Notes: generated from the sequence alone by a model not told the origin. Positions 6,126 through 60,708 are shown, numbered from the stretch's first letter. The stretch is DNA of 64,000 bases from a phage (GCA_025611195.1 GCA_025611195.1_4718.2), one strand, 5' to 3'. Translations and numbers: made by a program.

Positions 6126-6181
6126 CCGCATAAAATTCCGCGCATATTACCCCTCTATCCCGACAAAGCGAGATAGAGGGG
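6126..6181 (-). promoter_or_regulatory. intergenic stem-loop (CCCCTCTATC/GATAGAGGGG, 12-nt loop) followed on the minus strand by TTTTATGCGG
   Basis: Perfect 10-bp inverted repeat at 6150..6181 between the stop of 6194..7948 and the start of 5509..6036; TTTTATGCGG at 6126..6135 in minus orientation. Confidence 0.5.
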
Positions 6182-6193
6182 AGGATAATACGA

Positions 6194-7948
6194 TTATGCT
6201 GCTACATATCCAGGCCAACGTTCTCTTGGCCAGTTTGTTGCGCCCTGTCCAACGTTGTCCTTACCAGAAATTACGTTACTTACATCCCATCCACTCAGAT
6301 CCTGATTGAACGCGGTGTTTTCGCGCATCATGAGATCGATCTTACGTAGTGAACGGGTATTCCAGCCGGAAATGTCTTGGTTGAATGCTGTATTGTAGGC
6401 AAACATGTTAGACACGCTTTGTAATTTTGAGGTGTTCCAACCACTGATGTCGCTATTGAACGGCATGCTTGAGAACATGCTGCTCGCATCAACAAGGCTG
6501 TCGGTTTTCCAATTAACCAGTTTATCACCATCAAGTGCAGCGCTGCTGCTGAACATAAAACTCATGTCGTTAACTTTGGACACATCCCATTTATCCAACC
6601 CGTTACCCACGAACGCAGGACAGGACGAGAACATATAACTCATATTAGTAACCCGACTCACATTCCATTTACTGAAGTCGAGGTTAAGTTTCTGACACCC
6701 TAAGAAGGTTTTAGACATGTTGGTGATACGACTAACATCCCACTCTTGGATGTTGGGGTCGTTAAGTGTCGTTAAATAGTTGAACAACATCGCTAACGAC
6801 GTCCATTTCTCTGGAATCCGGTTTGGTACCGTACGAAGCGATGCGAGGTTGTTGGTTGACGGAGAGCAGAACATGCCGTTATCCCAATTTACGATCTCCG
6901 TAATTTTGGACCCTTTGATCGTCTGAGTGACGTTACCATCTTTCACCATACCTGTAGCGACGATGGTATATTCACCGGTGTCCGCATAATCGTGGGAGTA
7001 GGAGTTGTTGCTTGAGGTCTCCGTTACTTTATTCCCATCACCCCAATCGATATTGACCTTATCCCATCCACCTAGATAGAACTGTACTTTGCCTCCGGTG
7101 GCTTTTAGGATGTATTTACCCCCATTGTCTGTATAATAACAGACGACCATCGAACCGTACAGATTACCTATCTGCCAATCATCCTTTTGCGTTATTGCGA
7201 TTTGCGCCGCACCACGCTGTACGAAGAGTACCGTACGATTCTCGGCAGTCTGTAATGTGGTTATTGCCTGAGCCTTATCGTCCTCGCTAATTTCGCCAGA
7301 CACCACCAAAGCGCTTAACATCCTTTCGAAGTATTCGATCGGTAACTCGGTTCCAACAGACTTATCAACAGACGATACGGCAAGATCACCCAATGCTGCG
7401 GTGGTAGCCAACGCCAATGAACCCTTGGTCATATCTGTTTCTTGGATGTAATGCAGTCCTGTAAGCTGGTACGCTTGAATAATAGTAATCAGGTTCAGCG
7501 TATCGTTAACGACCTGTACCTGTAAATTCCCGGACCATACATAACTGCTTTCAGCAATCGGTAGTTCGACCGACTGAATACCCGATGTTTCAAAGGTGAT
7601 CTTCTTATTAAGATCGGTTTCCAGGAAATCAACCGCGAGGTCGAAATTCATGCCGTACTTTTCAGCGATGGAATCTACGATATTCTTGAAAGCAACATCT
7701 GTGCTTACGATAAAACGTAACGGAATTCCTGTAAACGCTTTAGCGATATCTCGACGAACATACGTAAGCGATTGTTCGAAGAAATAGGGACTGTTATCTC
7801 CAGGCTTGATGGTTACCTGACACGCTTCAGGATATTCAGCTGGGATGAACGATTCGAATTTAACATCAGATTCCTTCAACGAAAGCTTGTTATTTCGGTT
7901 CACTAACGCCAGAAGATCGGCTTTCCATCCGGGGTAAACTGTAGACAT
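6194..7948 (-). CDS. fibre-family protein: shared N-terminal module plus C-terminal DUF285/BspA-type repeats
   Basis: N-terminus MSTVYPGWKADLLALVNRNN... is paralogous to three other products. C-terminal half has repeated WDVS.V.NMS.MF..C.AFNQDISGW units typical of DUF285 (Mycoplasma/BspA-like) repeats. Start moved to ATG 7948 (GGAGTG upstream). Confidence 0.7.
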   Translation of the reverse strand: MSTVYPGWKADLLALVNRNNKLSLKESDVKFESFIPAEYPEACQVTIKPGDNSPYFFEQSLTYVRRDIAKAFTGIPLRFIVSTDVAFKNIVDSIAEKYGMNFDLAVDFLETDLNKKITFETSGIQSVELPIAESSYVWSGNLQVQVVNDTLNLITIIQAYQLTGLHYIQETDMTKGSLALATTAALGDLAVSSVDKSVGTELPIEYFERMLSALVVSGEISEDDKAQAITTLQTAENRTVLFVQRGAAQIAITQKDDWQIGNLYGSMVVCYYTDNGGKYILKATGGKVQFYLGGWDKVNIDWGDGNKVTETSSNNSYSHDYADTGEYTIVATGMVKDGNVTQTIKGSKITEIVNWDNGMFCSPSTNNLASLRTVPNRIPEKWTSLAMLFNYLTTLNDPNIQEWDVSRITNMSKTFLGCQKLNLDFSKWNVSRVTNMSYMFSSCPAFVGNGLDKWDVSKVNDMSFMFSSSAALDGDKLVNWKTDSLVDASSMFSSMPFNSDISGWNTSKLQSVSNMFAYNTAFNQDISGWNTRSLRKIDLMMRENTAFNQDLSGWDVSNVISGKDNVGQGATNWPRERWPGYVAA

Positions 7949-7966
7949 AAGCACTCCAAAGTTCAT

Positions 7967-7983
7967 GGGGCGGTAACCGCCCC
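7967..7983 (-). promoter_or_regulatory. GC-rich stem-loop GGGGCGG-TAA-CCGCCCC
   Basis: Perfect 7-bp stem between the stop of 7989..11585 and the start of 6194..7948. Confidence 0.45.
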
Positions 7984-7988
7984 GTTGG

Positions 7989-12488: not shown

Positions 12489-12543
12489 AAAAAAAAAAAA
12501 CAAAAATAGGAAAACGGTGCTCATCCTTTTAGGGATGAGCACC
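12489..12543 (-). terminator. rho-independent terminator (minus strand)
   Basis: Perfect 11-bp stem GGTGCTCATCC / GGATGAGCACC with 6-nt loop, followed on the minus strand by a long U-tract (plus-strand A-run at 12489..12514). Sits downstream of 12565..13143. Confidence 0.8.
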
Positions 12544-12564
12544 GCGTACCGTTATATCGAATGA

Positions 12565-13889: not shown

Positions 13890-14064
13890 TTCCTATTCCT
13901 CAAACAAATGATTGTCTTTTACGCGACACGATTACAAGTACACAGGTTACTGAATTTCTGTAAGAGTTAATTTTCGTAAACTAAAAGAAAATGTATCCGT
14001 GTTTCCTGGTTCTTCCCCTCCACAGCCTCAGGAAGAGAAGAACCGTTTGCTAAGTTGTTATATA

Positions 14065-14313: not shown

Positions 14314-14360
14314 GATGATTTCCTTCTTTATTAGGATGATTACATTTAGTCAGTTTAACA

Positions 14361-14392
14361 GCATAAACCCTTCCCGCGTAAGGCAGGAAGGG
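14361..14392 (-). promoter_or_regulatory. stem-loop CCCTTCC/GGAAGGG followed on the minus strand by TTTATGCTG
   Basis: Inverted repeat 14368..14374 / 14386..14392 between the stop of 14407..14904 and the start of 14065..14313; TTTATGCTGT read on the minus strand (plus 14358..14367). Confidence 0.5.
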
Positions 14393-16902: not shown

Positions 16903-16960
16903 GATAAAGATCCTTATTGAAATAAAATCGGTATAAAGCCCCCCATTTAGGGGGACCTGA

Positions 16961-21206: not shown

Positions 21207-21223
21207 TTTGTTTCCTTTTATCA

Positions 21224-21249
21224 GCATAAACCCTCCCATACCGGGAGGG
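21224..21249 (-). promoter_or_regulatory. stem-loop CCCTCCC-ATACC-GGGAGGG followed on the minus strand by TTTATGCTG
   Basis: Perfect 7-bp stem at 21231..21249 just after the stop of 21255..21683; TTTATGC at 21224..21230 (minus), 15 nt before the methyltransferase Shine-Dalgarno. Confidence 0.55.
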
Positions 21250-27339: not shown

Positions 27340-27379
27340 CGGCATAACACCCGTGTCCGCCCGCGATGGGAGGGACACG
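27340..27379 (-). promoter_or_regulatory. stem-loop CGTGTCC/GGACACG followed on the minus strand by GTTATGCCG
   Basis: Inverted repeat 27352..27379 after the stop of 27400..28008; TTATGCCG at 27340..27348 (minus) upstream of the 27008..27292 start. Confidence 0.45.
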
Positions 27380-27399
27380 AGCAATACGCTTTTATTTCT

Positions 27400-34772: not shown

Positions 34773-34790
34773 GGGTGGGCGTACCCACCC
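34773..34790 (-). promoter_or_regulatory. stem-loop GGGTGGG-CGTA-CCCACCC
   Basis: Perfect 7-bp stem between the thymidylate synthase stop and the next gene. Confidence 0.45.
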
Positions 34791-36022: not shown

Positions 36023-36146
36023 CGTTTTCACCTCGTAGTAAAAGTAAATAGAGTTTTGTCGAGACGCCCTAATTACATACAACGTAGGTTCTCCTGGCTT
36101 CAGAGAATTCTTAAAATCCGTTAGTTTTGATGGACAGGATAAGACA

Positions 36147-36175
36147 GCATAAAAGCCTCCCATTACGGGAGGCTT
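36147..36175 (-). promoter_or_regulatory. stem-loop AAGCCTCCC-ATTAC-GGGAGGCTT followed on the minus strand by TTTTATGCTG
   Basis: 9-bp stem 36153..36175 after the stop of 36187..36735; TTTTATGC at 36147..36154 (minus). Confidence 0.55.
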
Positions 36176-36735: not shown

Positions 36736-36821
36736 AATAGAACCTCATGATAATAGATAATAGAAATGATAGATAGTACAACAAATTGAGGGGGTATTAT
36801 CCCACCCCCTCGCAGGGATTA

Positions 36822-37742: not shown

Positions 37743-37783
37743 CGAACATAACCCTCCTCCGACCCATCAGGGAAGGAGGAGGG
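37743..37783 (-). promoter_or_regulatory. stem-loop CCCTCCTCC/GGAGGAGGG (14-nt loop) followed on the minus strand by TTATGTTCG
   Basis: 9-bp stem 37752..37783 after the stop of 37793..38107; the plus strand carries AATATGCTG on the other side. Confidence 0.5.
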
Positions 37784-37792
37784 AATATGCTG

Positions 37793-41472: not shown

Positions 41473-41487
41473 ATCAGGGCTCCTTTG

Positions 41488-42674: not shown

Positions 42675-42686
42675 AATAGCCTCGTG

Positions 42687-42713
42687 AAGGTGGATGGTAC
42701 ACCCATCCACCTT
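42687..42713 (-). promoter_or_regulatory. stem-loop AAGGTGGATGG-TACAC-CCATCCACCTT
   Basis: Perfect 11-bp stem between the stop of 42722..43243 and the start of 42441..42674. Confidence 0.5.
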
Positions 42714-42721
42714 CCTCCATG

Positions 42722-44095: not shown

Positions 44096-44114
44096 AGCAG
44101 GTACCGGTAACGCG

Positions 44115-44139
44115 GCATAAACCCTCCCCGAAGGGAGGG
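44115..44139 (-). promoter_or_regulatory. stem-loop CCCTCCC-CGAA-GGGAGGG followed on the minus strand by TTTATGCCG
   Basis: 7-bp stem 44122..44139 after the stop of 44150..44707; TTTATGC at 44115..44121 (minus). Confidence 0.55.
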
Positions 44140-44149
44140 CGGTTAATGA

Positions 44150-45186: not shown

Positions 45187-45208
45187 TCATCATTCTCCGC
45201 TTTCATGT

Positions 45209-45895: not shown

Positions 45896-45944
45896 CGCAC
45901 GTACCTCTTTGAATCGGTAGATAGATTAATAGATATTGATTACT

Positions 45945-45968
45945 CACGTAAGTAATATAGCCGTGAAA
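45945..45968 (-). promoter_or_regulatory. candidate early-type promoter: TTTCACGGCTATATTAC (second copy)
   Basis: Exact 17-mer shared with 17352..17368, minus orientation, about 56 nt upstream of ATG 45895, followed by the imperfect palindrome TTACGTGAGTAA. Lies in the divergent intergenic region 45896..46111. Confidence 0.5.
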
Positions 45969-46048
45969 GGATTTGTGTTGGTCCGTTTCGATGCCCATCG
46001 TATTTTATGGATTGTCGAATGACGTCATTTTTAAGGGACATCCCCGAC

Positions 46049-46088
46049 CTCCTCCCCACACCTTTCCTGGGGAGGAGTTTTATCATAC
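46049..46088 (+). promoter_or_regulatory. stem-loop CTCCTCCCC/GGGGAGGAG followed by TTTTATCATAC, upstream of plus-strand helicase gene
   Basis: 9-bp stem at 46049..46077, then TTTTATCATAC at 46078..46088, 24 nt before ATG 46112. The same TTTTATCATAC occurs at 54712..54722. Confidence 0.45.
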
Positions 46089-46111
46089 TTTCTATTAATT
46101 CGAGCGCGATT

Positions 46112-48193: not shown

Positions 48194-48196
48194 TTA

Positions 48197-48233
48197 AGAA
48201 GCTCTGCCTGATGTCAGGCAGAGCTTTATGCTG
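48197..48233 (+). terminator. rho-independent terminator after the helicase gene, followed by TTTATGCTG
   Basis: At least 10-bp stem GCTCTGCCTG / CAGGCAGAGC with a 4-nt loop, directly after stop TAA (48191..48193), followed by TTTATGCTGCG. Confidence 0.75.
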
Positions 48234-48292
48234 CGTTCGCTGCAAAATCGTATGACGTATATGCGTTGTACTTATTAAATAGGACTGAATAC

Positions 48293-49744: not shown

Positions 49745-49762
49745 AAAAAATAGTTAGCATAT

Positions 49763-49795
49763 CTTCCTCCCTACCCATAACGGGCGGGGAGGAAG
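49763..49795. terminator. bidirectional stem-loop at convergent gene junction
   Basis: CTTCCTCCC / GGGAGGAAG 9-bp stem with 15-nt loop between the plus gene (stop 49744, then an A-run) and the minus gene (stop 49813). Flanked by AGCATAT and TTTATG. Confidence 0.6.
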
Positions 49796-49812
49796 GTTTA
49801 TGTGGCTATGAC

Positions 49813-50151
49813 TTAGAACCAGAGTTCTTTCATGAGGTAGGCTTCCATATCGTAGATAAGCCACTCGTCAGGAATTTCTAAAGGATCGTCTTCGGTTAAG
49901 GTCAGCATGTGCAGGGCGAACGCACGCTTAATATCGTTCAGCAGTTTCTCGTCGTCGTAACCTTCAGGTAACTTACGGTCTACCAGTTGGGTTTGTTTAT
50001 AGACAGCACAGAACGCTTCTGGGCTGTGTTTGTCCATCGGAAATTGTTCAGCAGCCTGAACCATCGTCAACGTCCAGCTTACAACATTGTAGCGCTCACC
50101 GTTAATTTCACTGAACTGATCATCGATTAAACAGATTTGTTGTACGTTCAT
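49813..50151 (-). CDS. hypothetical acidic protein
   Basis: 112-aa ORF; ATGA overlap. Confidence 0.5.
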   Translation of the reverse strand: MNVQQICLIDDQFSEINGERYNVVSWTLTMVQAAEQFPMDKHSPEAFCAVYKQTQLVDRKLPEGYDDEKLLNDIKRAFALHMLTLTEDDPLEIPDEWLIYDMEAYLMKELWF

Positions 50152-51041
50152 TCATTTTCTCCATTCTTATCTTGGTCGCAATCACACTCTTCGACGTCTT
50201 TCTTACTTAAACGCAAGACACCAAGTGCGGCATGCTTGAGTTCTTGCAACGCGCTTTTCAGCTGACCTTCTTCATCGAAATCAAAATACTTCTCGTTGTA
50301 GCTTAATGCTGGAATCATATTTACGAGAGGCTCGATGGCAGGCATCAACATTTCAATAACAACCTTAGGATCAACAAAGCGTTCAAACCCTTCAGGAAGT
50401 TTGCTCGCCACAACCTTATCGTTCTTGATGAAGAATTTGTTCTTGAATAAATCGTCAAGAATAGCGTTCTCTTCATCCGTACGTTTTGCGTGAGGACGAT
50501 CGATCATCTGCACAAACACATCACTCAACGCTTCAGGCAGGGTCGGATTTTCACGAAGAGAAGTTCCAGCCGGAATTTCAATATCGATCTTTGCCCACTC
50601 AACAACCTGGTGATCTCGTGTGTAGATAACATCGACTTCCCACGCCAGGCCGTCCGGACTTTCCACAGTGTAACGTGTTTTCGCTTGACCTTCCGGAGCC
50701 ATACGCTCAATGGCATCAAACATCTCGACTGGGATTTCGACTTCGCTTTCCGTTGCATCGCCTGGACCACGATACACCTTCGTGGTCATGATGTATTTCG
50801 GTTCTTCGTTATCGATCTGTATCGCACGTGCGCGTACCTGACCTTTCACACCACCAACGGCCGTGTTATCAAACAACCATTGATGTTGCACCATATGTTC
50901 GATTTTTGATGCGACTTGACGAAGACGTTCAACACCGTCCTCAGCCAGTTTACCAAAGAAGACCAGCTCACGTTCCTGCTGTGTCTCACCACTTAACATC
51001 ATTAAATTGGCGATTTGTTTCACGCCTCTTACTTTTGACAT
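50148..51041 (-). CDS. hypothetical protein
   Basis: 297-aa ORF. Confidence 0.55.
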   Translation of the reverse strand: MSKVRGVKQIANLMMLSGETQQERELVFFGKLAEDGVERLRQVASKIEHMVQHQWLFDNTAVGGVKGQVRARAIQIDNEEPKYIMTTKVYRGPGDATESEVEIPVEMFDAIERMAPEGQAKTRYTVESPDGLAWEVDVIYTRDHQVVEWAKIDIEIPAGTSLRENPTLPEALSDVFVQMIDRPHAKRTDEENAILDDLFKNKFFIKNDKVVASKLPEGFERFVDPKVVIEMLMPAIEPLVNMIPALSYNEKYFDFDEEGQLKSALQELKHAALGVLRLSKKDVEECDCDQDKNGENE

Positions 51042-51056
51042 ACATGCTCCGGTTAT

Positions 51057-51094
51057 AAGGGCCTGCTTCGAGGCCCTTCATTGATTTTTTGATT
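51057..51094 (+). promoter_or_regulatory. stem-loop AAGGGCC/GGCCCTT followed on the plus strand by a T-tract
   Basis: Hairpin 51057..51078 then CATTGATTTTTTGATT. Has plus-strand terminator polarity although the flanking genes are on the minus strand. Confidence 0.4.
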
Positions 51095-51110
51095 CCACCA
51101 AACGCTATCG

Positions 51111-52685
51111 TTACAATTCAAAATCTTCATCGATAACGCGCTGGGTAAGCACTTTGTCGCTGAAGAACTCCACCTTGCGCTGATGGTATTTACGATGCGC
51201 TTCGATAGAAGTACATACCAGATACCAGAAGGTTGGCGTCATTCCTTCAAACTTCCCTTTCAGCTGACGCAGTCGCCCCAACACCTGAATGTTACCGGTT
51301 CGTGACCCCATCGCTAACGTCATGAACGCCATCACCAAGTCAGGAAGGTCGATACCCGTACCTGCCGATTTCACCGTCGTAACGCTAATATCGTTATCCA
51401 ACAAGACCATGAAATCTTCTTCAGCCGTATAAGGACCGATCTCTAACTCAGGAATACGTTCACTAAGGTAATGCGACAACGACTTACACATATCGACGGT
51501 TGCACAATACACCAGCATCTTCATACCTTCCTGATACTGGTTCATGAAACCTTTGATGATAACCGTATAGATGAAGTTAAAATACGCGAGTTTGAGTTGC
51601 TTGTTCTTCATGATAGACTGTTCGAATATCGTGTGAGAATAAGAACCCCCAAACCCTTTATATCTGACTTTATCTGTACTGCGTAGTCGATACGTCACGG
51701 CATTTACCGCAATGTATTTCTTGTATTCGCCTTTCGCATAACGGGCTTCTTTCGGATACATCAAATACAACATCCGCTCGATGAACGGATCATCGGACAC
51801 CGCCGTTGCTGACAGATAGATGATTTCCGGAATACTAGCGTAACACTTGACCTTAAACAAGAAATGCAATGCTTCATGGCACTCGTCATGAATCAGAAGG
51901 CCTATGCCGGTCTTTTCCCAAAACTCAGCGGGATGGAAGGCATATGGCGCAACGCAGTTATTCTTCTCGTAGTCCGCAATATAACGTTGGAACATGTTCA
52001 AGGAGAACAATGCGATTTTGAAGTCGAGTTCGCCTTGTTCAACCAAGGTTTGAAACTCCAACATACTGTAACGAGGAATGTCAGGATGCGGTGGATCCTC
52101 CTTAGCGTTCCCGCGTATCTCGATAACATCCCCTGGTTCCATCCCGAAGAAGTTCAGTAGTGAGCTTCGCCAACCTGGCATGTATCTCGGCGACAGAATG
52201 ATACCCGTCCGCACACCGCGTCGGAAGGTAATCTCCTGCGACATGGCCGTTTTTCCCGACCCCGTTTGAGCGGTGTTTAGGCTCATTCTGAAGGGGGTAT
52301 CCTTACCCCCGTCCATGTACTCCAACCATTCTTGCTGATCTTCACGCCATGGGAACTTCCATTTCTTTACGAACTCCACTTCTTTACCTGGTGCCGGATC
52401 GTGGTAAACGATTTCCAACCACTCTTTTCGTATCCCTCGGGAAAAGATAAAATCCAAAAACGATTTCAACTGTTCGCGGAGTAAGTATACCTCACTATAA
52501 TCGCTTCTTGCCGCGGCATACGTGTTTATGGTATCGGTAACCATTCTCCGTGTACGAGGGTCGCGCCGTTTCCTCAGATGCAAACAACGGTCTCGAAGGT
52601 AATGGCCGATAAGATGGGCAAATCGAAGTCCGTATCCGCTCAGCCTCATGCCGTGCGAGAAGACATCGATACGAGCTAACTTCAT
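51111..52685 (-). CDS. SF2 DExH-box helicase
   Basis: Motif I QTGSGKT, motif II LLIHDECH, motif III YLSATAV, motif VI-like QVLGRLRQ. ATGA overlap with the upstream gene. Confidence 0.75.
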   Translation of the reverse strand: MKLARIDVFSHGMRLSGYGLRFAHLIGHYLRDRCLHLRKRRDPRTRRMVTDTINTYAAARSDYSEVYLLREQLKSFLDFIFSRGIRKEWLEIVYHDPAPGKEVEFVKKWKFPWREDQQEWLEYMDGGKDTPFRMSLNTAQTGSGKTAMSQEITFRRGVRTGIILSPRYMPGWRSSLLNFFGMEPGDVIEIRGNAKEDPPHPDIPRYSMLEFQTLVEQGELDFKIALFSLNMFQRYIADYEKNNCVAPYAFHPAEFWEKTGIGLLIHDECHEALHFLFKVKCYASIPEIIYLSATAVSDDPFIERMLYLMYPKEARYAKGEYKKYIAVNAVTYRLRSTDKVRYKGFGGSYSHTIFEQSIMKNKQLKLAYFNFIYTVIIKGFMNQYQEGMKMLVYCATVDMCKSLSHYLSERIPELEIGPYTAEEDFMVLLDNDISVTTVKSAGTGIDLPDLVMAFMTLAMGSRTGNIQVLGRLRQLKGKFEGMTPTFWYLVCTSIEAHRKYHQRKVEFFSDKVLTQRVIDEDFEL

Positions 52686-54688
52686 AACGTGAATACATCC
52701 TCCGGTTTAGGTTCTTTGCGCGGTAAAAGCATGTAGTCGATCGGATGATCCGGCTTCATGGTTGGGATATAACTGTTCGGGTTTTGGAACGCATCCAGTT
52801 GCTCTTGGTGAGCGAACTTCATACTCAAGGAGCGCATGTTCATGTTCTTCTTGAAGGTGCTGAAGTATCGTGTTGTTCCCTGTTTCGGCATGCGATAATC
52901 TTTCGTGTGTGGCGAACGAATCATGCTGGCGTAGAGAATAACATCGAGATGCGAAAGGTTCATTCGCAGACGCTGTGCGCACAAGCGATGCCAATAGTAC
53001 AGCACGTTTGCAACTTCTTCCGGTGTTGCTTCGTCTTCCGAGAGGAACCCGGCACTGAAAGAACCTTTCCCGAATTTGAACTCACGTTCGATTTCTTTTG
53101 CGTATTCCATCATGTTTTTGTGGATTAACGGCATCTGGAATAACGTACGTGAATTGTCCCAATGTTTCAAGTCGAAAATCACAATCCCGTCAGACGTCAC
53201 TTCCCAGCTATGGCGTTTAAGATAACGGATAAACGCTTTACTCGGTACAACAGGACGTCCGCAGAAATCGAAATTGACTTTGAGCTTACGATAGCTTTCA
53301 TCTTTCCTGTCGTAAATCTCCATATCGCAAAGCGTCATGTTAAACAGACGCTGTGGTATCAGCGAACTGATTTCTTCCGCTTCGGCTACATCGTACAACA
53401 TGTTCGCAAGACCTAACTTCATCTTAATCAGCACGTGTTTACCTTTCAGCTCACGTGCGAGTTTGATGTCGTTCATGTTCTGGCTGTAACGAAGGATATG
53501 TTGATATTCCGGTGGGATTGGTGCTGTAGAGACCGTTGACGAACCGTCGTGGTGTTTGGTAGAAAGAATGTTCTGCGTTACCTGTTGCGAGCAGGTACGC
53601 GCTGCGCCATCGCCGACATTATCGGTTAATGCGAAGTTATGACTTAATTCACCATAACACGTTGTGCATACCCCAGCAGGATCGGGATGATGACAATAGT
53701 TAACGGAGCGCATACGCACTGTGGTGCCGATCAATTCTTTCATATGTGGTTGTATCGCTACCAACGAACCGTCATCACGAATAATGAATCGGCCGTGGAA
53801 GCCACGCAGGTCGGTCTCATCACGGATTGGCATCGGGATGGTCTCTCTACTACCACAATCACCAGGATGTAGTCGTTGCACAACCGCTGTCGCTATCTGA
53901 AGTTCACGACCGAAATATTCAGACTTTTTAATCTGCTCTTTGTTGAACAGCAACGATTTCGCCGCAGAACGACTTTCTTTCAAGCTGTCGGGAAGAGAGA
54001 TCAAACCTGACGCGTACGACCGCATTACTGGATCACGGAATATCTCGGAGTTAATATCGGTCAAGAATCCACGCATCCCAATACACTGCAGCACCTGCCC
54101 AATCGAAACGTGTTCGGTTCTTACCGCACGTGCAATAGGGTTTGCATGTAATGTTTTATCGGTGCTCAGTACCTTTGTCAGTTTCTTGTATGCGCTTTCG
54201 ATACCTTCGCGGGTGGGTTCCGCTTCAGCGATGATTTTCTTAACTTCGGGGTGTACGGTAATCTGATAAAAATCATCCGCACAAATAGTTGTTACGTATT
54301 CCTCCAACGCATACGTAAAGAAGTTATACACGTTGTTAAACATATCGAACAGTGCTTTCCAGAGAACCTCACGATTCTCTTGTGGGTAAGCATACATGCA
54401 TTGACGATACGCTGCGCTTTGCAACGCTACCGATGAACCCGCTGTAAACTTACGTTTATCAACCAGGTTCTCTTTTGTCAATGGTGTCTCAGGATACATG
54501 CGATGTACAGACCAGTGCATGTAACTAAAGAAAATGCGTCGCGCACGTAATTCATGAACGCCATCGTCCATCTCGATATATACACGGTCATTAGGCTGTG
54601 CCCACTCGAATACCTCATCAACCGGCCAGTGCATAAGCTCGCGTGCCCTCACACGACGTTTCGTGGTGGTCGTCTGTGTTGTAGTCAT
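52682..54688 (-). CDS. RNA polymerase beta'-like subunit, C-terminal fragment (multisubunit phage RNAP)
   Basis: Colinear similarity to bacterial beta' region F through the trigger loop: CIGMRGFLTDINSEIF (beta' AGMRGLMAKPDGSIIE), bridge-helix-like SRSAAKSLL, VRMRSVNYCHHPDPAGVCTTCYGEL (beta' [22 protein letters not shown]). No NADFDGD motif, so the N-terminal part is encoded elsewhere. Confidence 0.7.
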   Translation of the reverse strand: MTTTQTTTTKRRVRARELMHWPVDEVFEWAQPNDRVYIEMDDGVHELRARRIFFSYMHWSVHRMYPETPLTKENLVDKRKFTAGSSVALQSAAYRQCMYAYPQENREVLWKALFDMFNNVYNFFTYALEEYVTTICADDFYQITVHPEVKKIIAEAEPTREGIESAYKKLTKVLSTDKTLHANPIARAVRTEHVSIGQVLQCIGMRGFLTDINSEIFRDPVMRSYASGLISLPDSLKESRSAAKSLLFNKEQIKKSEYFGRELQIATAVVQRLHPGDCGSRETIPMPIRDETDLRGFHGRFIIRDDGSLVAIQPHMKELIGTTVRMRSVNYCHHPDPAGVCTTCYGELSHNFALTDNVGDGAARTCSQQVTQNILSTKHHDGSSTVSTAPIPPEYQHILRYSQNMNDIKLARELKGKHVLIKMKLGLANMLYDVAEAEEISSLIPQRLFNMTLCDMEIYDRKDESYRKLKVNFDFCGRPVVPSKAFIRYLKRHSWEVTSDGIVIFDLKHWDNSRTLFQMPLIHKNMMEYAKEIEREFKFGKGSFSAGFLSEDEATPEEVANVLYYWHRLCAQRLRMNLSHLDVILYASMIRSPHTKDYRMPKQGTTRYFSTFKKNMNMRSLSMKFAHQEQLDAFQNPNSYIPTMKPDHPIDYMLLPRKEPKPEDVFTL

Positions 54689-55319: not shown

Positions 55320-55433
55320 AATCTCATTTCCTCTTATACGTTCGGATAGATGACATGTTGGATATACGTTGCCTTTGCATATATTGCTTTATTTCCGTCA
55401 GAAATAACGGAAAATAAAAACAACGACATAGTT

Positions 55434-55463
55434 CCCTCCCACCTCCACATGGGAGAGGGAGGG
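55434..55463 (-). promoter_or_regulatory. stem-loop CCCTCCC/GGGAGGG (16-nt loop) after the stop of 55477..55842
   Basis: 7-bp stem; a second hairpin TTTCCGT...ACGGAAA lies at 55391..55412. Confidence 0.5.
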
Positions 55464-55865: not shown

Positions 55866-56216
55866 TTAGCAATCGTTTAAAACTTTTTCGATACGATGGT
55901 TGACGAGTTCATTGAACGACTCTTCAACTTGTTCGATAATTTCATCAACGTCGATATCTAATTGTTGGGGTTGGATAACATGCTCTTTCATGGTTTCTAA
56001 CCAGTATTCGGCTTTAACCATAACGTTAGCTACTTGTTCGACCTGGCTGCGTATGTCGACGATCTGGCAGTCAGGATTTTTAATATCGATGATGTGTCCG
56101 TGCTGATTGATAAAGCCTAGTTTATTCGACGCCTTTACCGCATCGCGGGCAAGTTCTTGCAAGATTAAATTATTTACGTAGTTCACTGCTACGGAACGAT
56201 TTTCTTTATCACTCAT
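55866..56216 (-). CDS. small acidic protein (acidic trio B)
   Basis: Start moved to ATG 56216 (AAGAGGA upstream); the ORF-track N-terminal extension runs through the stem-loop. Confidence 0.5.
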   Translation of the reverse strand: MSDKENRSVAVNYVNNLILQELARDAVKASNKLGFINQHGHIIDIKNPDCQIVDIRSQVEQVANVMVKAEYWLETMKEHVIQPQQLDIDVDEIIEQVEESFNELVNHRIEKVLNDC

Positions 56217-56284
56217 ACCAGGGATCCTCTTTAAGTCTTCACATTCTAGTGTTAAGCAGTTAAAATAAACCGTCCCTTTAATCA

Positions 56285-56323
56285 GCATAAACATCCTCCT
56301 CCTACCATGCGGGCAGGAGGAGG
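56285..56323 (-). promoter_or_regulatory. stem-loop CCTCCTCCT/AGGAGGAGG followed on the minus strand by TTTATGCTG
   Basis: 9-bp stem 56295..56323 after the stop of 56335..56748; TTTATGC at 56285..56291 (minus), about 70 nt upstream of ATG 56216. Confidence 0.55.
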
Positions 56324-56334
56324 CGTAATATGCA

Positions 56335-56748
56335 TCAGAAAGGTGTGCGATTCTTATATTCGAATAATGTCTGAAGGACACATCGTGTTAACGAGTTTTG
56401 TAATTCGATACGTCCTTGTTCTCCGAACAGATCCAACACCATCATCCCTTTTGCTGTTTTCTCTGCCACTTCTTCACAAATCTGTAAATTGTACATGTCG
56501 TCATTGCCGAGTTCCTTTCGACCGATCGAACTGACACGCATCAACTCACCTTTACTATCGCGAACATCGGAGAATGCATCATAGACCGCATCGATGTTCG
56601 CAGAACGCGTCAAACCCTCCGCTTCGCGCCACTCTCGATATGTACCATCAAGCGTTTGTTCCTCGCCCGAGGTTGTTGATTCGCTGTTGGTGGTTGGGCG
56701 AATTAAATGGGGTGTTATCATCGCGATCACGCTGTCGTAATGGTCCAT
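56335..56748 (-). CDS. small acidic protein (acidic trio C)
   Basis: 137-aa ORF immediately downstream of the beta-like gene. Confidence 0.5.
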   Translation of the reverse strand: MDHYDSVIAMITPHLIRPTTNSESTTSGEEQTLDGTYREWREAEGLTRSANIDAVYDAFSDVRDSKGELMRVSSIGRKELGNDDMYNLQICEEVAEKTAKGMMVLDLFGEQGRIELQNSLTRCVLQTLFEYKNRTPF

Positions 56749-56759: not shown

Positions 56760-58928
56760 TTAGCTTTCGCAGTCATCTGCGTCGATGATTTGTCCGCCAG
56801 CAACGTTCAGTTGATGATACAGAATCCTCAACGCACGGTTGCCACCAATGGGATACTTCTCGAAGTTGGTCGCAATAGGAATCGCTGACGGCTTATCGGT
56901 CGCATAGATGCTTTCAGTGATGCTATCCACCTGTTTTGGATTGTTCGCATAGTCCATAAAGACGCTCGCAAACCATCCGCCAGCGAAGGCGGTAACTTCG
57001 CGATGTTCAGATTCGCCACAGTAACGAGTCGGTTGCTCTTTACCGGGAGAACTGTATTTATCGCTATTACTGAGTTTCGACGGTAATCCATGCGCTTGCA
57101 ATTTAGGGATACCCACAGCCGACCAATCGTTCGCCGTCTTCTCCAACATCATGATGTACGTGTCACCGATCGCAATATCGTTCTTGGTTGTCCGCCACTG
57201 TCCAGAACGCCCGCGGTACCGTACAGGACCTTTCTTCAACGGGAACTCACGAATCAGATTCTCCATACGTTCTGAACCTGCTGCGATACTGTCCGTCGGG
57301 ATATAAACTTCCGTACCGTGGCGCTGTACGTACCGTAAATGATCCCATTTATCCTCATTCGTGATACAGTATTTTTCAACAACCTGTTCCACGAACTCAG
57401 GACTGACGATATAGTAATAGCGCATCAGTGTGTTCCAGGCGGTCTCCAGATCGCCTGCATCCATCACTGGTTTCAGTTCACGCATGATCTGATCACCAAC
57501 GCCGTTGATGTATGGCGCATTAACACGACTTAAACTCATCCTTTTAATTACCGTGCTATCGTCAAACATAAAGTCCGCAACGTTACCCCATTGGTCAACC
57601 GGCATTTCATCGTCTTCCATGATGTCGGTTACGACGAATTTATCGCCTGCCATACCGGTGAATTTAAACCCGATGCCTGGAACAACGTCATACGTGTATG
57701 TGATGGTCACACGCCAATCATCAAGATTCTCTTTACGGTAATCGCGGGTCGGTAACACATGGCGTAGCTGTCCGTTAGGATTGCGGATATCAATACCGTG
57801 TTCAGCGTCAGCCAGGTTCAACCACCACATCACCGTTTGATGATGACGTATCGGCGTACCAACGCGTTCACGTTCGTACTTACGAACAGCATCCTGAATT
57901 CGGGTGTAAAGCAAACCGATTGCGTTCTCGTATTTCAGGAATTGACGATACGGAGGACGCATCTTCTCTTCCATCATAATCGCGCGCTCGCGGGCTTGAC
58001 GTCCAGAACGACGATGTCGATCGCTGACAACATCGATATCCGTTACACGCGCATTCGGTTCAGCGTAAGTGAGATCATCGTAAACATAATCCACACGCTG
58101 AAGATTACACGTCATCATGTCAACAACGCTGAGGATAGGATCTATTTCGCGTGTTGCTGCAAGTAACCCATCCTTACGAATACGCTCACCGTTCTCGGGT
58201 ATCGCTTGATATACCTCATCATCGCCGTAGAGATTAATTGGATATCGTGATTTACCTGATGTGATCGTTCGCTTCTCAATGCCGGTACTGGTGAAATGCT
58301 TCAATACACCACGACGGGCAACGCCACCATCTTCAATACACTGGTAGAAGCTACCGAAACACACCTTGCAATCGCGACCGTAACCCCACTCACGTGTTTC
58401 TTGATTGATCGCTGGGCTTTCCATCAAACGAGAATATCGCGGTACGATCTGGCCTCGACGAAGGGAATGGAACAAGTTGGTTGGTCGAAAACGGAAACCG
58501 TACTGCTGATGCATGATGTGATGCTCAGGCACTTCAAGCAAGCGTAGCTCGTGACGGTTACCATCCTCTTGGTTTTCGTACAGCACGTAATGCATCGTGT
58601 TTGTTTTGATGCTGTTTGCTGTATGTCCTGGTTGAAACCGTGGAATGATATCTATGATGCGAGATTCAACTGGAAACTCTACTGACCAAGTGTTCTGTCC
58701 GTACTGGTATTCAATCCCCGTCGTTAGTCGGGACGGCTTCGCATCTTTGATAACCAACGCTTGGCTAAGATGTCCACCAAACATCGCAGCGCGCTGTGCT
58801 GAGTTATAATGCAATAGCCCGTTAAGTCCAGTCCCTACGCCAGTATACTCCTGTTTAATGGGAATGATTTTACCTTCAGCGATTGCCTGCTTCACAGATT
58901 CATAAAGAGGTTTTTCTTTATAATGCAT
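56760..58928 (-). CDS. RNA polymerase beta-like subunit, C-terminal fragment (multisubunit phage RNAP)
   Basis: Colinear matches to the beta catalytic region: GMAGDKFVV (beta GDKMAGRHGNKG), EDDEMPVDQWGNVAD...KRMSLSR (beta EDMPYDENGTPVD...SRMNIGQ), IGDTYIMMLEKTANDW (beta GYMYMLKLNHLVDDKMHA), GESEHREVTAFAGG (beta GEMEVWALEAYGAA). Start moved to ATG 58928 (AGGAAG upstream). Confidence 0.65.
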   Translation of the reverse strand: MHYKEKPLYESVKQAIAEGKIIPIKQEYTGVGTGLNGLLHYNSAQRAAMFGGHLSQALVIKDAKPSRLTTGIEYQYGQNTWSVEFPVESRIIDIIPRFQPGHTANSIKTNTMHYVLYENQEDGNRHELRLLEVPEHHIMHQQYGFRFRPTNLFHSLRRGQIVPRYSRLMESPAINQETREWGYGRDCKVCFGSFYQCIEDGGVARRGVLKHFTSTGIEKRTITSGKSRYPINLYGDDEVYQAIPENGERIRKDGLLAATREIDPILSVVDMMTCNLQRVDYVYDDLTYAEPNARVTDIDVVSDRHRRSGRQARERAIMMEEKMRPPYRQFLKYENAIGLLYTRIQDAVRKYERERVGTPIRHHQTVMWWLNLADAEHGIDIRNPNGQLRHVLPTRDYRKENLDDWRVTITYTYDVVPGIGFKFTGMAGDKFVVTDIMEDDEMPVDQWGNVADFMFDDSTVIKRMSLSRVNAPYINGVGDQIMRELKPVMDAGDLETAWNTLMRYYYIVSPEFVEQVVEKYCITNEDKWDHLRYVQRHGTEVYIPTDSIAAGSERMENLIREFPLKKGPVRYRGRSGQWRTTKNDIAIGDTYIMMLEKTANDWSAVGIPKLQAHGLPSKLSNSDKYSSPGKEQPTRYCGESEHREVTAFAGGWFASVFMDYANNPKQVDSITESIYATDKPSAIPIATNFEKYPIGGNRALRILYHQLNVAGGQIIDADDCES

Positions 58929-58959
58929 AGGACTTCCTATTATCGAATTGAGGTACGTC

Positions 58960-59313
58960 ATGTCTAACACGCCCCTGAACGACTTTCTTAAGACAAACCC
59001 CGATGACCTCATCCACGATCTTGATTTCAGGAACGTTGTTGAGATGCATCTGGAATATTTCAAAAATGCCGGACTGGTCTCTACGATAGACATACCACCC
59101 GAACGCGCCTACGAATTCGATGGTAACTTTTATGGATTGTGTCGTGTTCTGCTCGGCGAGGGCAGTGAATCAATGCACTGGATCACCATGAGACTCAATG
59201 GTTATCGCGACCCTACGGAATACACGGCCGATGTTCTAACCATGAAGATTGTCGATACAAGCGCAATCAACACATTAAAACAGCAGTACCGCACAATCCA
59301 CTACAGCGCTTAA
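58960..59313 (+). CDS. hypothetical protein (lone plus-strand gene)
   Basis: MSNTPLNDFLKTNPDDLIHDL...; GAGGT 6 nt before ATG 58960. Divergent from the beta-like gene with a 31-bp spacer. Confidence 0.5.
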   Translation: MSNTPLNDFLKTNPDDLIHDLDFRNVVEMHLEYFKNAGLVSTIDIPPERAYEFDGNFYGLCRVLLGEGSESMHWITMRLNGYRDPTEYTADVLTMKIVDTSAINTLKQQYRTIHYSA

Positions 59314-59318
59314 GATAA

Positions 59319-59358
59319 CCCTCCCACAGCGTAAAGCGTAGGGAGGGCATTTATGCCG
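59319..59358. terminator. stem-loop CCCTCCC/GGGAGGG at convergent junction, followed on the plus strand by ATTTATGCCG
   Basis: 7-bp stem 59319..59347 with 15-nt loop between the plus gene stop (59313) and the minus gene stop (59379). Confidence 0.5.
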
Positions 59359-59378
59359 TCGTTCGTTGGCTTAGCACA

Positions 59379-60659
59379 TCAGAAACGATTTACAGTACGT
59401 CCTGTCCACGCACTCAGGATGTTGTTACGTTCCATCTCAGCCCGACGACGTAAACCGTTTGGCGACTGCGGTGCTGGCGGCATCCCCCACCCAGCAGGCT
59501 GCATACCCATACCAGGCCAAGCGGTATTATTGAACATCGTGCCGTTACGTTCCGCGACACGATTCATCAACGCATCAAACGTGCTATTACCTGCCGGTTG
59601 GTTACCACCACTTTCCCACTGATTAGGTTGAACAGGTGCGGTTTTACCTAACAGGTTATCAATCACGTTACTTGTTGCAGCAGGACGCGGTTGCATACCT
59701 TCATGTGCAGCTGCTGATGGATTTGGCTTAACCGTCGGCTGCGGACGACTGTTCAGCGTTACACCCATGTTGTATTTCGCTGGTGGAATCTGACCACGAT
59801 GTTGGGTAATCGGCTCAAAATCCTCGACCCAGGTAACATCGCAATAACCGTTCTCTTTACCGTCGTACTTATCACCAAACAGTTTGATGAGATTGTTCAG
59901 CGGTTCCATCAGCTTCGCGAAGCTGTGGATAAGACAATCGAAATAGGGAGCATGAGGATCGCTTGACCCAGCATTATACGTTTCACTTACTTCACCGGAG
60001 TGAGGGATAACGTACTCAACCAGGTTTCTCAGCATGTTAAGATCTTTCTTGGAAATCTCAACACCACACCAGTACGTTTTCTTATCTTTCGTGCTGATGT
60101 GTTCCTCTTCCATGAACGGGAAAGTAACTACCGCAACACGGGTCATCTTCTTACCCATGTAGGTTGCGCCGGTACGACGAAGATAAATTTTAGACAGCGT
60201 ATACGGTGTGTCGCGTTTCAACCAAACGGTAACCAGTTTGCCCAGGGTCGTTAATGTTTTATCGCTGGCGTCCGCAAGGATGTTGAAGAACTCTTTTTGC
60301 TTCGGTCCGAAACGTTTTGCTTCTTTAGGGTTGATTGCGGTTTCAACCATCCAAATCAGCATAGAACACAGCGTGGCGTTAAAACGAACAACCATCGCGC
60401 GACGCAGGAACTGAAGTACTTCCGATTCGCCGTTCATCACGTCTTCACTTAACGGATGGAACAACACGCGTTCAGCTAACTGGTTTCCGGTACGAACTTC
60501 GGGAACCGGCATCAGCAACGGCATGCTTTCCACGGTAGCGGCAACTGCAACAACTTTACCATCCCCATCCGTAAAACGATATTCTAATTCGTGGGCATCA
60601 TTCTCAAAATAGTTAACGCTTTGCAGCGCTTTGCGATAAGCTTCAATAAGCTTCGACAT
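59379..60659 (-). CDS. hypothetical protein with Gln/Pro/Gly-rich C-terminal tail
   Basis: 426-aa ORF with AAGGAAA before ATG. Confidence 0.55.
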   Translation of the reverse strand: MSKLIEAYRKALQSVNYFENDAHELEYRFTDGDGKVVAVAATVESMPLLMPVPEVRTGNQLAERVLFHPLSEDVMNGESEVLQFLRRAMVVRFNATLCSMLIWMVETAINPKEAKRFGPKQKEFFNILADASDKTLTTLGKLVTVWLKRDTPYTLSKIYLRRTGATYMGKKMTRVAVVTFPFMEEEHISTKDKKTYWCGVEISKKDLNMLRNLVEYVIPHSGEVSETYNAGSSDPHAPYFDCLIHSFAKLMEPLNNLIKLFGDKYDGKENGYCDVTWVEDFEPITQHRGQIPPAKYNMGVTLNSRPQPTVKPNPSAAAHEGMQPRPAATSNVIDNLLGKTAPVQPNQWESGGNQPAGNSTFDALMNRVAERNGTMFNNTAWPGMGMQPAGWGMPPAPQSPNGLRRRAEMERNNILSAWTGRTVNRF

Positions 60660-60687
60660 ATTACGTTTCCTTTTCTTTTACGTCAAC

Positions 60688-60708
60688 GGTCCCCCACAAC
60701 AGGGGACC
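60688..60708 (-). promoter_or_regulatory. stem-loop GGTCCCC-CACAACA-GGGGACC
   Basis: 7-bp stem after the stop of 60715..62301. Confidence 0.45.

Follow-up and report, generated by a model that had tools for sequence, protein, structure and literature searches.

The window analysed here, a 64-kb (64,000-nucleotide) stretch of a relative of Escherichia phage Goslar (Chimalliviridae; 94% nucleotide identity), carries intergenic GGAGG/CCTCC hairpins followed by TTATGC which very probably are conserved terminators of the phiKZ type, the class of phiKZ and 201phi2-1, an assignment made by sequence identity with elements of Pseudomonas phages whose nvRNAP beta' is only ~30% identical at the protein level. 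The reading rests on motif identity with the published consensus, placement after genes, a stem kept by purifying selection and a tail conserved throughout the family, all directly established here, as are the motif itself and its enrichment. The terminator class is already known from phiKZ and 201phi2-1, and current knowledge is not overturned. In line with a chimallivirus encoding a split-subunit vRNAP and nvRNAP, nvRNAP/vRNAP beta-like subunits (RNAP beta-like PHROGs at 52682-54688 and 56760-59093) and a homologue of phiKZ gp74 are encoded in the window. No Rfam family matched at the gathering threshold across the whole window on either strand.

Intergenic hairpins of the window

The 64-kb window holds 23 strong intergenic hairpins, beginning 2-32 nt past the upstream stop codon, 4 of which the Goslar record already lists as putative terminators. 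An earlier note had listed 18 sites, placing most of them between genes; hairpins of the described kind are present at 18/18, with a density far above chance, and the placement holds, while the hairpins at 603-634, 14008-14044, 16938-16956, 36788-36811 and 51057-51078 were absent from its list. Its description of CCTCC-like and GGAGG-like arms fits most sites but not 7967, 34773, 42687 and 60688, which are G/C-rich and of another type; similarly, most stems are perfect (7-12 bp, against the 7-11 bp it gave), but those at 27352, 37752, 49763, 55434 and 59319 are two-tier or contain one mismatch or bulge. TTAT or TATG begins 0-4 nt after the hairpin in ~16 of the 23, and TTATGC(Y)G follows it at 8 sites, the "at least eight" sense tails TTATGC(T/C/G)G of the note being exactly 14368, 21231, 27352, 36153, 44122, 48201, 56295 and 59319(+). 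A TATG tail of looser form is present on both strands at 37752 and 49763, and also at 6150, 55434 and 56295(+). The tail-bearing elements, read as putative terminators, are the following.

6141..6181, minus strand: hairpin CCCCTCTATC...GATAGAGGGG with tail TAATATGCG, -23 kcal/mol, after gene 6194-7966; a second TTTTATGCGG lies 20 nt beyond the tail
14359..14392, minus strand: CCCTTCC...GGAAGGG with TTTATGCTG, probable phiKZ-type terminator; an upstream CGTATG pairs with the tail, giving an elongated stem
16929..16956, minus strand: GTCCCCC-TAAAT-GGGGGGC with tail TTTATACCG (A after TTAT), absent from the earlier list
21222..21249, minus strand: CCCTCCC-GGTAT-GGGAGGG with TTTATGCTG, probable phiKZ-type terminator, strict consensus match
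27340..27382, minus strand: two-tier GCTCGTGTCC..CCC...GGG..GGACACGGGT with GTTATGCCG, putative terminator hairpin; 4 stem differences from Goslar, pairing kept in all
36145..36175, minus strand: AAGCCTCCC-GTAAT-GGGAGGCTT with TTATGCTG, probable phiKZ-type terminator; Goslar annotates a terminator at 132985-133005
37743..37792, bidirectional: two-tier CCCTCCTCC-TTCCC-TGAT-GGG-TCGGAGGAGGG, tails TTATGTTCG (minus) and AATATGCTG (plus); belongs to a family of ~32-nt hairpins present at least 10 times in Goslar
44113..44139, minus strand: CCCTCCC-TTCG-GGGAGGG with TTTATGCCG, probable phiKZ-type terminator, strict consensus match
46049..46086, plus strand: hairpin CTCCTCCCCA...TGGGGAGGAG with TTTTATCAT, in a divergent intergenic region upstream of a helicase gene, possibly a leader-RNA terminator; loop inverted relative to Goslar, which annotates a terminator at 142891-142915
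48199..48235, plus strand: AAGCTCTGCCTG-ATGT-CAGGCAGAGCTT with TATGCTGCG, putative terminator after the helicase gene; stem other than CCTCC type, tail the same; Goslar has the loop inverted and the tail TTCATG
49754..49805, bidirectional: CTTCCTCCC..CCC...GGG..GGGAGGAAG, tails GTTTATGTGG (plus) and ATATGCTAA (minus), at the convergent junction 48266-49744(+) / 49813-50151(-)
51048..51078, minus strand: AAGGGCCT-CGAAGC-AGGCCCTT with tail ATAACC, TTAT overlapping the stem end, after helicase gene 51111-52685; phiKZ has a terminator in the same position after gp75
55425..55463, minus strand: two-tier CCCTCCCTCTCC...GGAGGTGGGAGGG with AACTATGTC; Goslar copy identical
56283..56336, both strands: CCTCCTCCTGCC...GGTAGGAGGAGG, tails ATGTTTATGCTG (minus) and CGTAATATGCATC (plus); GCATA/TATGC flanks lengthen the stem, -30 kcal/mol
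59309..59358, putative bidirectional terminator: CCCTCCC...GGGAGGG, tails CATTTATGCCG (plus) and TTATCTTAAG (minus), between the small plus-strand gene 58948-59313 and the minus-strand gene 59379-60659; arms and TTATGCCG kept at the orthologous site in L014

The other hairpins, among which are the six or seven lacking a tail, are listed below.

603..634, minus strand: two-tier CATCCTCCC-TTCCC-TTAC-GGG-TTGGGGGGATG, no TTAT tail, the next ATG being a start codon; Goslar has a flipped version at the site
7967..7983, minus strand: G-first GGGGCGG-TTA-CCGCCCC, no TTAT tail, lying ~20 nt ahead of where gene 6194-7948 probably starts
12490..12544, minus strand: 12-bp stem CGGTGCTCATCC...GGATGAGCACCG then a long T-rich run, canonical intrinsic terminator; compared with Goslar, the loop is inverted and a C-G pair has become T-A by compensatory change
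14008..14044, minus strand: 14-bp hairpin GGTTCTTCTCTTCC...GGAGGGGAAGAACC, no TTAT tail, absent from the earlier list
34773..34790, minus strand: G-first GGGTGGG-TACG-CCCACCC, then TAATAC, no TTAT tail
36788..36811, minus strand: G-first GAGGGGGT...ACCCCCTC then AATTTGTTG; Goslar annotates a terminator at 133619-133642
42686..42714, minus strand: 12-bp hairpin GAAGGTGGATGG...CCATCCACCTTC; the GAGG...ATG after it is no tail but the Shine-Dalgarno sequence (SD) and start of the next gene
60688..60708, minus strand: GGTCCCC...GGGGACC between two minus-strand genes, no sense tail; TATGGATTAG follows on the plus strand

Strand readings with a perfect stem of at least 7 bp and at least 60% GC numbered 34, compared with 9.4 after dinucleotide shuffling, and GGAGG-N0-6-TATG matched 13 times where 1.94 +/- 1.39 were expected, a number attained in 0/100 shuffles. 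A fold of -15 kcal/mol or lower in the 36 nt directly upstream was found at 21/402 TATG sites and 8/35 TTATGC sites, compared with 0.5% of random positions and 0.5-1% for control tetramers. The association put forward in the note also held genome-wide, since in the complete Goslar genome a strong hairpin precedes 25/124 TTATGC and 63/1293 TATG sites, against a background of 0.42%.

Match to the phiKZ and 201phi2-1 terminators

The phiKZ terminator consensus, BCCYCCCCHWWDGGGRRGGBYTTATKYYGT, was derived from 61 ONT-cappable-seq terminators (Putzeys et al. 2024, Microlife, PMC10914365); it has a similar counterpart in motif A of 201phi2-1 (n = 59), a phage of which 8 terminators were validated in vivo, strongly terminating transcription between two reporter genes (PMC11512511) placed in P. 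chlororaphis with the host RNAP, not the phage RNAPs. Like phiKZ, the window shows (i) C-rich/G-rich arms (CCYCCCC...GGGRRGG), (ii) TTAT 0-3 nt past the stem followed by K-Y-Y-G-T, with TTATGC(Y)G at the 8 sites, and (iii) placement downstream of stop codons in the sense direction, bidirectional at convergent genes, 49763 and 59319 having tails on both strands. Four strict consensus matches (no more than 1 mismatch in each arm, and TTATK) lie at 21249, 36172, 37776 and 44139; relaxed CCTCC/GGAGG arms are found at 6150, 14368, 46049, 49763, 55434, 56295 and 59319, and a minority of tail-bearing stems (48199, 27349, 51057) are other than CCYCC-type. Some instances are almost letter-identical in the two phages: a 42-kb stretch of phiKZ contains CCCTCCC-GTAAT-GGGAGGG-TTTTATG, nearly the same as 36145..36175, and GCCTCCCCTAGGGGAGGC-TTTATGCTGA. 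In contrast to phiKZ, the window phage has an E. coli host and a genome of ~46% GC, its loops and stems are more variable (two-tier, up to 14 bp, non-CCYCC stems such as GCTCTGCCTG), its type of tail prefers G (about 64-70%) where phiKZ has K after TTAT, and its elements are predictions from sequence, those of phiKZ having been mapped by ONT-cappable-seq.

All 5 in-vivo-validated 201phi2-1 terminators that we examined consist of a hairpin and CTTTATGN[Y]G, i.e. CTTTATGNYG, with the published RNA 3' end on the Y preceding the final G, 2 nt downstream of the G of TATG. The window elements share this arrangement with 201phi2-1 motifs A and A/B (elongated hairpins), and at 14368, 27349, 37752, 49763 and 56295 an upstream CATA pairs with the tail TATG and lengthens the stem, as in that phage; 201phi2-1 stems, however, are mostly of GCC(A/C)G type, unlike the CCCTCCC of the window. 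This match to an experimentally mapped, reporter-validated class of related phages supports the terminator reading, and we infer that 3' ends form at these elements in the window phage too, where the responding polymerase or polymerases may be the phage vRNAP, the nvRNAP or the host RNAP.

Stable hairpins directly past stop codons generally protect against 3' exonucleases, and the elements could instead be 3'-end protectors or endonuclease landmarks to which polycistronic RNAs are cut or trimmed. ONT-cappable-seq 3' ends alone do not separate termination from trimming to a protective hairpin, and processed RNA species occur in phiKZ (Putzeys 2024). Selection for a specific 9-nt sequence past the stem, in hosts whose genomes range from 31-60% GC, would however not result from trimming, nor does trimming fit the in vivo behaviour of the 8 reporter-tested 201phi2-1 elements, so that we regard processing as quite improbable.

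Conservation of the tail and the promoter question

At 50 intergenic Goslar sites, the positions after TTAT are G (64%), C (52%), Y (80%) and G (60%), while the frequencies are flat after hairpins inside genes. Across 78 diverse IMG/VR chimallivirus loci (324 sites) the corresponding values are G 60% (background 16%), C 50%, Y 80%, G 49% and T 48%. The tail is thus retained across hosts with 31-60% GC genomes while stem sequences vary widely, and the motif is kept at orthologous junctions of a relative with 68% protein identity in nvRNAP beta'. A statement of family-wide TTATGCYGT conservation was not found in the literature examined.

The earlier note had proposed a terminator coupled to a phage-RNAP promoter, pointing to a TATG-containing late promoter of phiKZ. 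Such a promoter does exist: phiKZ late promoters require a TATG core, whose G is +1 and to which the beta-like subunit GP123 binds, although TATG alone is insufficient for nvRNAP initiation (Yakunina 2015; de Martin Garrido 2024 and 2026). The same tetranucleotide is present in the window tails, in a phage with homologous RNAPs, so that the hairpin might end the upstream unit and TATG restart the next gene; at tandem window sites a start codon with its own SD follows the G at a distance of 17-125 nt, and TATG is enriched ~2-fold in intergenic DNA. Nevertheless, G after TTAT is as frequent at convergent as at tandem junctions (0.70 vs 0.68 in the 78 loci, Fisher p = 0.87; 10/13 vs 15/23 in Goslar), and a downstream promoter therefore does not explain the conservation of the tail; at convergent junctions a restart would yield antisense RNA only. 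Moreover, conservation runs past TATG to CYGT, and phiKZ late promoters need no hairpin (p119L, the best studied, is without one upstream), whereas the window TATG is embedded in a longer conserved tail. A general terminator-promoter arrangement is accordingly unlikely. Because TTATGC(Y)G is the published terminator tail (TTATKYYGT) with the 201phi2-1 3' end inside it, and because the tail is equally frequent at convergent junctions and p119L has no upstream hairpin, promoter coupling is neither needed nor supported, though individual tandem sites may still function in this way. The terminator half of the proposal is supported, and TTATGC is the tail of a stop signal, not evidence of a promoter.

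Divergence of stems and loops

Between the window and Goslar, substitutions amount to 3.8% in stems, 19.5% in loops and 6-8% in flanks, and the stem changes are mostly pairing-preserving G-C/G-U/A-U interconversions, with one compensatory C-G to T-A change. The stem is thus under purifying selection. Near-identity of the ~32-nt two-tier hairpin at its Goslar sites, and inversion of loops between window and Goslar at 3-4 sites, which shows DNA-level recombination at the arms, could also point to palindromic DNA repeats (REP- or MITE-like, or signals for recombination, replication or packaging) spread by copying and unrelated to transcription. We consider this very unlikely, given that the elements lie strictly past stop codons with tails following gene direction, that widely different stems retain the tail, that G-U-keeping substitutions point to RNA, and that 3' ends have been mapped in phiKZ and 201phi2-1.

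The hairpins as possible translational elements

The note had also suggested that the stems sequester SD-like GGAGG. In that case the GGAGG 3' arm would be an SD and the ATG of TTATG a start codon, and GGGAGGG-TTT-ATG does resemble such a pair; the ATG opens an annotated 31-codon ORF of Goslar at 55434 and shares the frame of the downstream gene at 21231 and 56295. Most motif ATGs, however, open ORFs of 3-10 codons (14368, 36153, 44122, 49763+), and the motif is found on either strand, convergent junctions included. An SD within the stem at functional spacing was not found; at nearly all sites the real start lies further downstream with its own SD (AAGGAAA, GGAGGAAA, GAGG, GGAGA) 15-125 nt beyond the hairpin. 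Sequestration is therefore not supported, and translational control is extremely improbable.

Proposed mode of termination

Under the terminator reading, a hairpin rich in G/C would fold in the nascent RNA a few nt past the stop codon, typically of the form 5'-CCYCC...GGRGG-3' and in many cases two-tier, and the next 8-9 nt, (U)UUAUGCYG, would occupy the position of the U-tract of a canonical terminator, as the mapped 201phi2-1 3' end inside the tail indicates. By analogy with 201phi2-1, the transcript would be expected to end on the pyrimidine preceding the last G, ~8 nt past the stem. Since the two strands of a C-arm-first palindrome read alike, many elements have a tail on each side and could stop transcription both ways, at convergent junctions and against antisense read-through.

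Canonical Rho-independent terminators likewise have a G/C-rich hairpin, with release predicted 7-9 nt past the stem, but the window tails offer UUUAUGCYG with only 3-4 U in place of the U-tract, and most do not reach 5 T in the 8 nt after a G/C-rich stem. A canonical scan of 34001-54000 found 22 sites against 18 expected and did not list the GGAGG+TTATGC hairpins at 36153, 37752, 44122, 48199 and 49763; at 46049 it gave only an inner 6-pair stem (46061-46075) with a AGTTTTATCA tail. The textbook example is 12515, outside the scanned interval, where direct reading shows a long T-rich run past the stem. Like the shortfall in T, the tail-less hairpins and the location of 46049 upstream of a gene in a divergent region count against the terminator reading; once selection bias was removed, the strand with the tail had no significant advantage in RNA stability (83 vs 61, p = 0.08).

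A possible analogy is the class II pause/termination signal of T7 RNAP, the specific sequence ATCTGTT, in that a phage polymerase would read a short specific sequence instead of a plain U-run; the T7 signal, however, needs no hairpin, acts on a single-subunit RNAP and has no sequence similarity to the window tail. The tail TATG is the non-template-strand tetranucleotide read by the nvRNAP beta-lobe pocket at late promoters, and mapped 3' ends fall on a pyrimidine then G, with a G near -10. One sequence-reading pocket of the chimallivirus RNAP might thus serve both initiation and a sequence-programmed pause replacing the U-tract, maybe with immediate re-initiation at tandem junctions, a speculation that we hold to be rather doubtful; if true, the family-wide TTATGCYGT conservation would be a polymerase-specific termination code. 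More generally, conservation of the tail hints at a specific termination sequence recognized by the multisubunit RNAPs of the phages or by a conserved factor.

Implications for annotation

The elements extend the phiKZ terminator motif to E. coli chimalliviruses and provide a transcription-unit map of the window with about 23 boundaries in 64 kb. TTATGCYGT, conserved in at least 78 diverse family members whatever the genome GC or stem, offers a practical annotation signature. The putative terminators may also serve as parts for engineering Goslar, a main model for phage-nucleus biology. Finally, ORF calls over-extended through hairpins can be corrected, e.g. 20556-21239, 35819-36178, 46007 onwards and 55866-56381.

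Hairpins and tails in the window

At the DNA level, the helicase region of the window is 94% identical to that of Escherichia phage vB_EcoM_Goslar (Goslarvirus, Chimalliviridae) and matched no other phage record, the stretch of Goslar aligned with the window lying at ~96.8-160.8 kb. The gene content includes tail-fibre proteins, an NAD-dependent ligase and two RNA polymerase (RNAP) beta-like subunits; the protein encoded at 52682-54688 is a homologue of the phiKZ nvRNAP subunit gp74 (~30% identity), and a 100% identical protein is found on a 237.5-kb IMG/VR contig. The minus strand carries nearly all genes and is thus the RNA sense for most hairpin sites.

A hairpin was present at every coordinate listed in the earlier note, whose count of eight TTATGC(N)G tails was exact, and five more hairpins were identified. 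In sense orientation, a typical element has the form 5'-CCCTCCC-loop-GGGAGGG-TTTATGC(T/C)G, and the hairpins start 2-32 nt 3' of the upstream stop codon. Overall, ~16 hairpin-TATG/TTAT readings fall on 13-14 hairpins of the window. Stems that are perfect over 7 bp or more and have at least 60% GC occur in the window 3.6-fold above dinucleotide shuffles, and GGAGG-N0-6-TATG has 13 matches there, against 1.94 +/- 1.39 expected. When the 36 nt preceding each occurrence of a motif were folded, a structure of -15 kcal/mol or lower was found directly upstream of 5.2% of all TATG and 23% of all TTATGC sites in the window; control tetramers gave 0.5-1%, and randomly placed positions 0.5%. The enrichment of TTATGC beside hairpins extended to the whole Goslar genome (25/124 sites; 63/1293 for TATG directly after a strong fold; background 0.42%). 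Hairpin calling by energy, with stems refined automatically, was dropped, as it counted too few tails because the stem often runs on into CATA...TATG. Greedy longest-ORF calls wrongly placed several sites inside genes, since the longest ORFs over-extend through the hairpins, and contexts were checked against the Goslar annotation. Hairpin stability by strand gave 83 versus 61 (p = 0.08) with symmetric site selection, an earlier p = 3e-10 being judged selection-biased.

Relationship to mapped jumbo phage terminators

Transcript 3' ends of phiKZ have been mapped by ONT-cappable-seq (Putzeys et al. 2024; PMC10914365), and 61 of its terminators have a common motif, 5'-BCCYCCCCHWWDGGGRRGGBYTTATKYYGT-3', in which TTAT comes after a stem-loop (PMC10914365). 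The closely similar motif A of 201phi2-1 (n = 59) often occurs with a stem-lengthening motif B, and eight 201phi2-1 terminators of this type showed strong termination in a two-reporter assay (PMC11512511). The (T)TTATGC(T/C/G)G of the window corresponds to the TTAT-K-Y-Y-G portion of the phiKZ consensus. A scan of 42 kb of phiKZ returned near-identical elements, such as CCCTCCC-GTAAT-GGGAGGG-TTTTATG and GCCTCCCCTAGGGGAGGC-TTTATGCTGA, some of them bidirectional elements at convergent genes that carry TTATG on either side. At the published coordinates of the five strongest validated 201phi2-1 terminators, we found in each case CTTTATG(A/T/C)[Y]G after a G/C hairpin, with an upstream CATA pairing with the TATG of the tail; the published 3' end is the bracketed Y, 8 nt past the stem, the positional accuracy of ONT-cappable-seq being only ~2 nt (PMC11512511). 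As this 3' end lies inside the tail, the tail is transcribed and stands in the place of the U-tract of a canonical terminator. The same CATA...TATG stem extension is seen at window positions 14368, 27349, 37752, 49763 and 56295. The terminator function proposed in the earlier note thus agrees with an experimentally mapped, reporter-validated class, of which the window elements are, judging from their sequence, very probably new members.

That the hairpins serve purely as RNA-stability or processing elements, the alternative raised at the outset, seems improbable: stability alone explains neither the specific 9 nt after the stem, common to very different hosts, nor the termination seen in the 201phi2-1 reporter assays (PMC11512511). 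Translational control, in which the stem would sequester the Shine-Dalgarno (SD) sequence and the ATG of TTATG would act as start codon, is extremely unlikely, as the downstream genes have separate SDs, 15-125 nt past the hairpin, and the motif ATG mostly opens ORFs of 3-10 codons. No RNA motif is reported in the eCLIP study of ChmC in Goslar and PhiPA3, and an Rfam scan of the window gave 0 matches. Over window positions 34001-54000, a canonical terminator scan missed the tail-bearing elements, except for an inner-stem match at 46049, and sigma-70-like promoter matches were, if anything, depleted (26 versus 37.7 +/- 7.4 in shuffles). Both results would fit host-independent transcription.

Promoter or terminator tail

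Late promoters of phiKZ do contain TATG, as the earlier note stated: the tetranucleotide is necessary, with its G as +1 (Yakunina 2015), and the beta-like subunit GP123 reads the non-template strand. The proposal built on it, a terminator-promoter cassette in which the TATG of the tail is a promoter, nevertheless appears unlikely, given that (i) the conserved part reaches beyond TATG, to CYGT, (ii) the mapped RNA 3' end of 201phi2-1 lies 2 nt past the G of the tail, (iii) the region upstream of the phiKZ late promoter p119L is AT-rich and without a hairpin, and (iv) the tail occurs as often at convergent junctions (49763 and 59319 in the window), from which a promoter could yield antisense RNA only, as at tandem ones, G following TTAT at 10/13 convergent versus 15/23 tandem junctions in Goslar, and at 73/104 versus 54/79 in 78 chimallivirus loci (Fisher p = 0.87). 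These four points argue against a promoter as the cause of the conservation of the tail, although individual tandem junctions may occasionally serve both functions. The intergenic density of TATG, only ~2-fold enriched on both strands of Goslar, is uninformative on this question.

Conservation of the tail and a possible mechanism

At the intergenic hairpin+TTAT sites of Goslar (n = 50), TTAT is followed by G (64%), C (52%), Y (80%) and G (60%), whereas base frequencies are flat at such sites inside genes. In a relative whose nvRNAP beta' protein is 68% identical, the motif is kept at orthologous junctions, while loops and inner stems differ. We then sampled 78 diverse chimallivirus loci from IMG/VR, anchored by protein around the nvRNAP gene (1.6 Mb, 31-60% GC). 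Their 324 sites read TTAT-G(60%)-C(50%)-Y(80%)-G(49%)-T(48%), G following TTAT overall in 16%, and only a minority have CCYCC-type arms; the tail is therefore conserved more widely than the stem sequence. An exact-pattern IMG/VR scan, too strict to show spread, returned 5 loci, four on contigs of 231-267 kb and the fifth on a 31-kb contig. Between the window and Goslar, differences amount to 3.8% in stems, 19.5% in loops and 6-8% in flanks. Most of the 17 stem differences are G-C/G-U/A-U interconversions, one is a compensatory C-G to T-A change and about four weaken a pair. TATG is retained at all tail sites except one (48199, in Goslar), and the Y position alternates between C and T.

As a working model, the hairpin would form in the nascent RNA, the weak UUUAU stretch and the following GCYG would set the position at which the polymerase stops, and release would occur on the Y before G. 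A palindrome with its C-rich arm first reads the same on either strand, so that elements with a tail on each side would be bidirectional terminators. The geometry of this model, with G near -10, Y at -1 and G at +1, would be like that of the consensus elemental pause of multisubunit RNAPs. The TATG of the tail is also the sequence that the nvRNAP pocket reads at promoters, on which basis one may speculate about a shared initiation and pause pocket. Only two findings go beyond the literature consulted: the tail is conserved throughout the family, and it overlaps the tetranucleotide of the promoter.

Loop inversions and repeated hairpins

The loops of three hairpins are exactly reverse-complemented between the two 94%-identical phages, with arms and flanks unmoved, and a fourth hairpin is replaced by a flipped version.

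Hairpins with inverted loops or units, window versus Goslar
46049-46077 versus 142891-142919: loop reverse-complemented (9 mismatches direct, 0 to the reverse complement)
48199-48226 versus 145040-145067: loop ATGT versus ACAT
12515-12544 versus ~108130: loop CTAAAA versus TTTTTAG
603-634 versus ~97900: two-tier hairpin (outer and inner stem) replaced by its flipped version

Such a pattern suggests that spacers invert frequently, whether by recombination or by template switching from one inverted arm to the other. A 32-nt two-tier hairpin, CCCTCCTCC-TTCCC-TTAC-GGG-TTGGAGGAGGG, usually followed by TTATG, has at least 10 near-identical copies genome-wide.

Copies of the two-tier hairpin
Goslar: 4144, 15776, 27745, 48140, 49774, 61006, 71989, 93444, 134584, 224380, 237278
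Window: 603, 37752

Either selection has maintained an optimal terminator design at these sites, or one unit has been copied from site to site. The repeats in Goslar, together with the loop inversions, would suit a palindrome family acting at the DNA level, a reading that we regard as very unlikely in view of the gene-oriented placement of the elements.

The 46049 hairpin, with a TTTTATC tail (plus strand), lies in a divergent intergenic region (45896-46111) that precedes the helicase gene. The long ORF from 46007 is interrupted by indels relative to Goslar, so that this region does not code for protein; it might give rise to a short leader RNA or act as an attenuator, comparable to the small RNAs reported to derive from 5'UTRs in phiKZ.

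G-first hairpins and gene starts

Four hairpins of the window have the G-rich arm 5' (G-first).

G-first hairpins
7967-7983
34773-34790
36788-36811
42686-42714

All lack the TTAT tail and lie 8-13 nt 3' of a stop codon, with an SD or start codon following after ~10-20 nt. Such hairpins may constitute a class of their own, perhaps stabilising RNA or coupling translation.

The starts of six longest ORFs (20556-21239, 35819-36178, 46007-48193, 55866-56381, 42441-42710 and 34462-34788) run through hairpins, and the true starts must therefore lie further 3'; shorter versions of these genes are annotated in Goslar. Two of the TTATGC tails, at 21231 and 56295, have their ATG in frame with the gene, leaving its true start ambiguous. 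At 55334-55429, the 31-codon ORF annotated in Goslar as Goslar_00167 starts at the ATG of the tail AACTATG after hairpin 55434-55463, and may be an artefact of the motif, not a gene.
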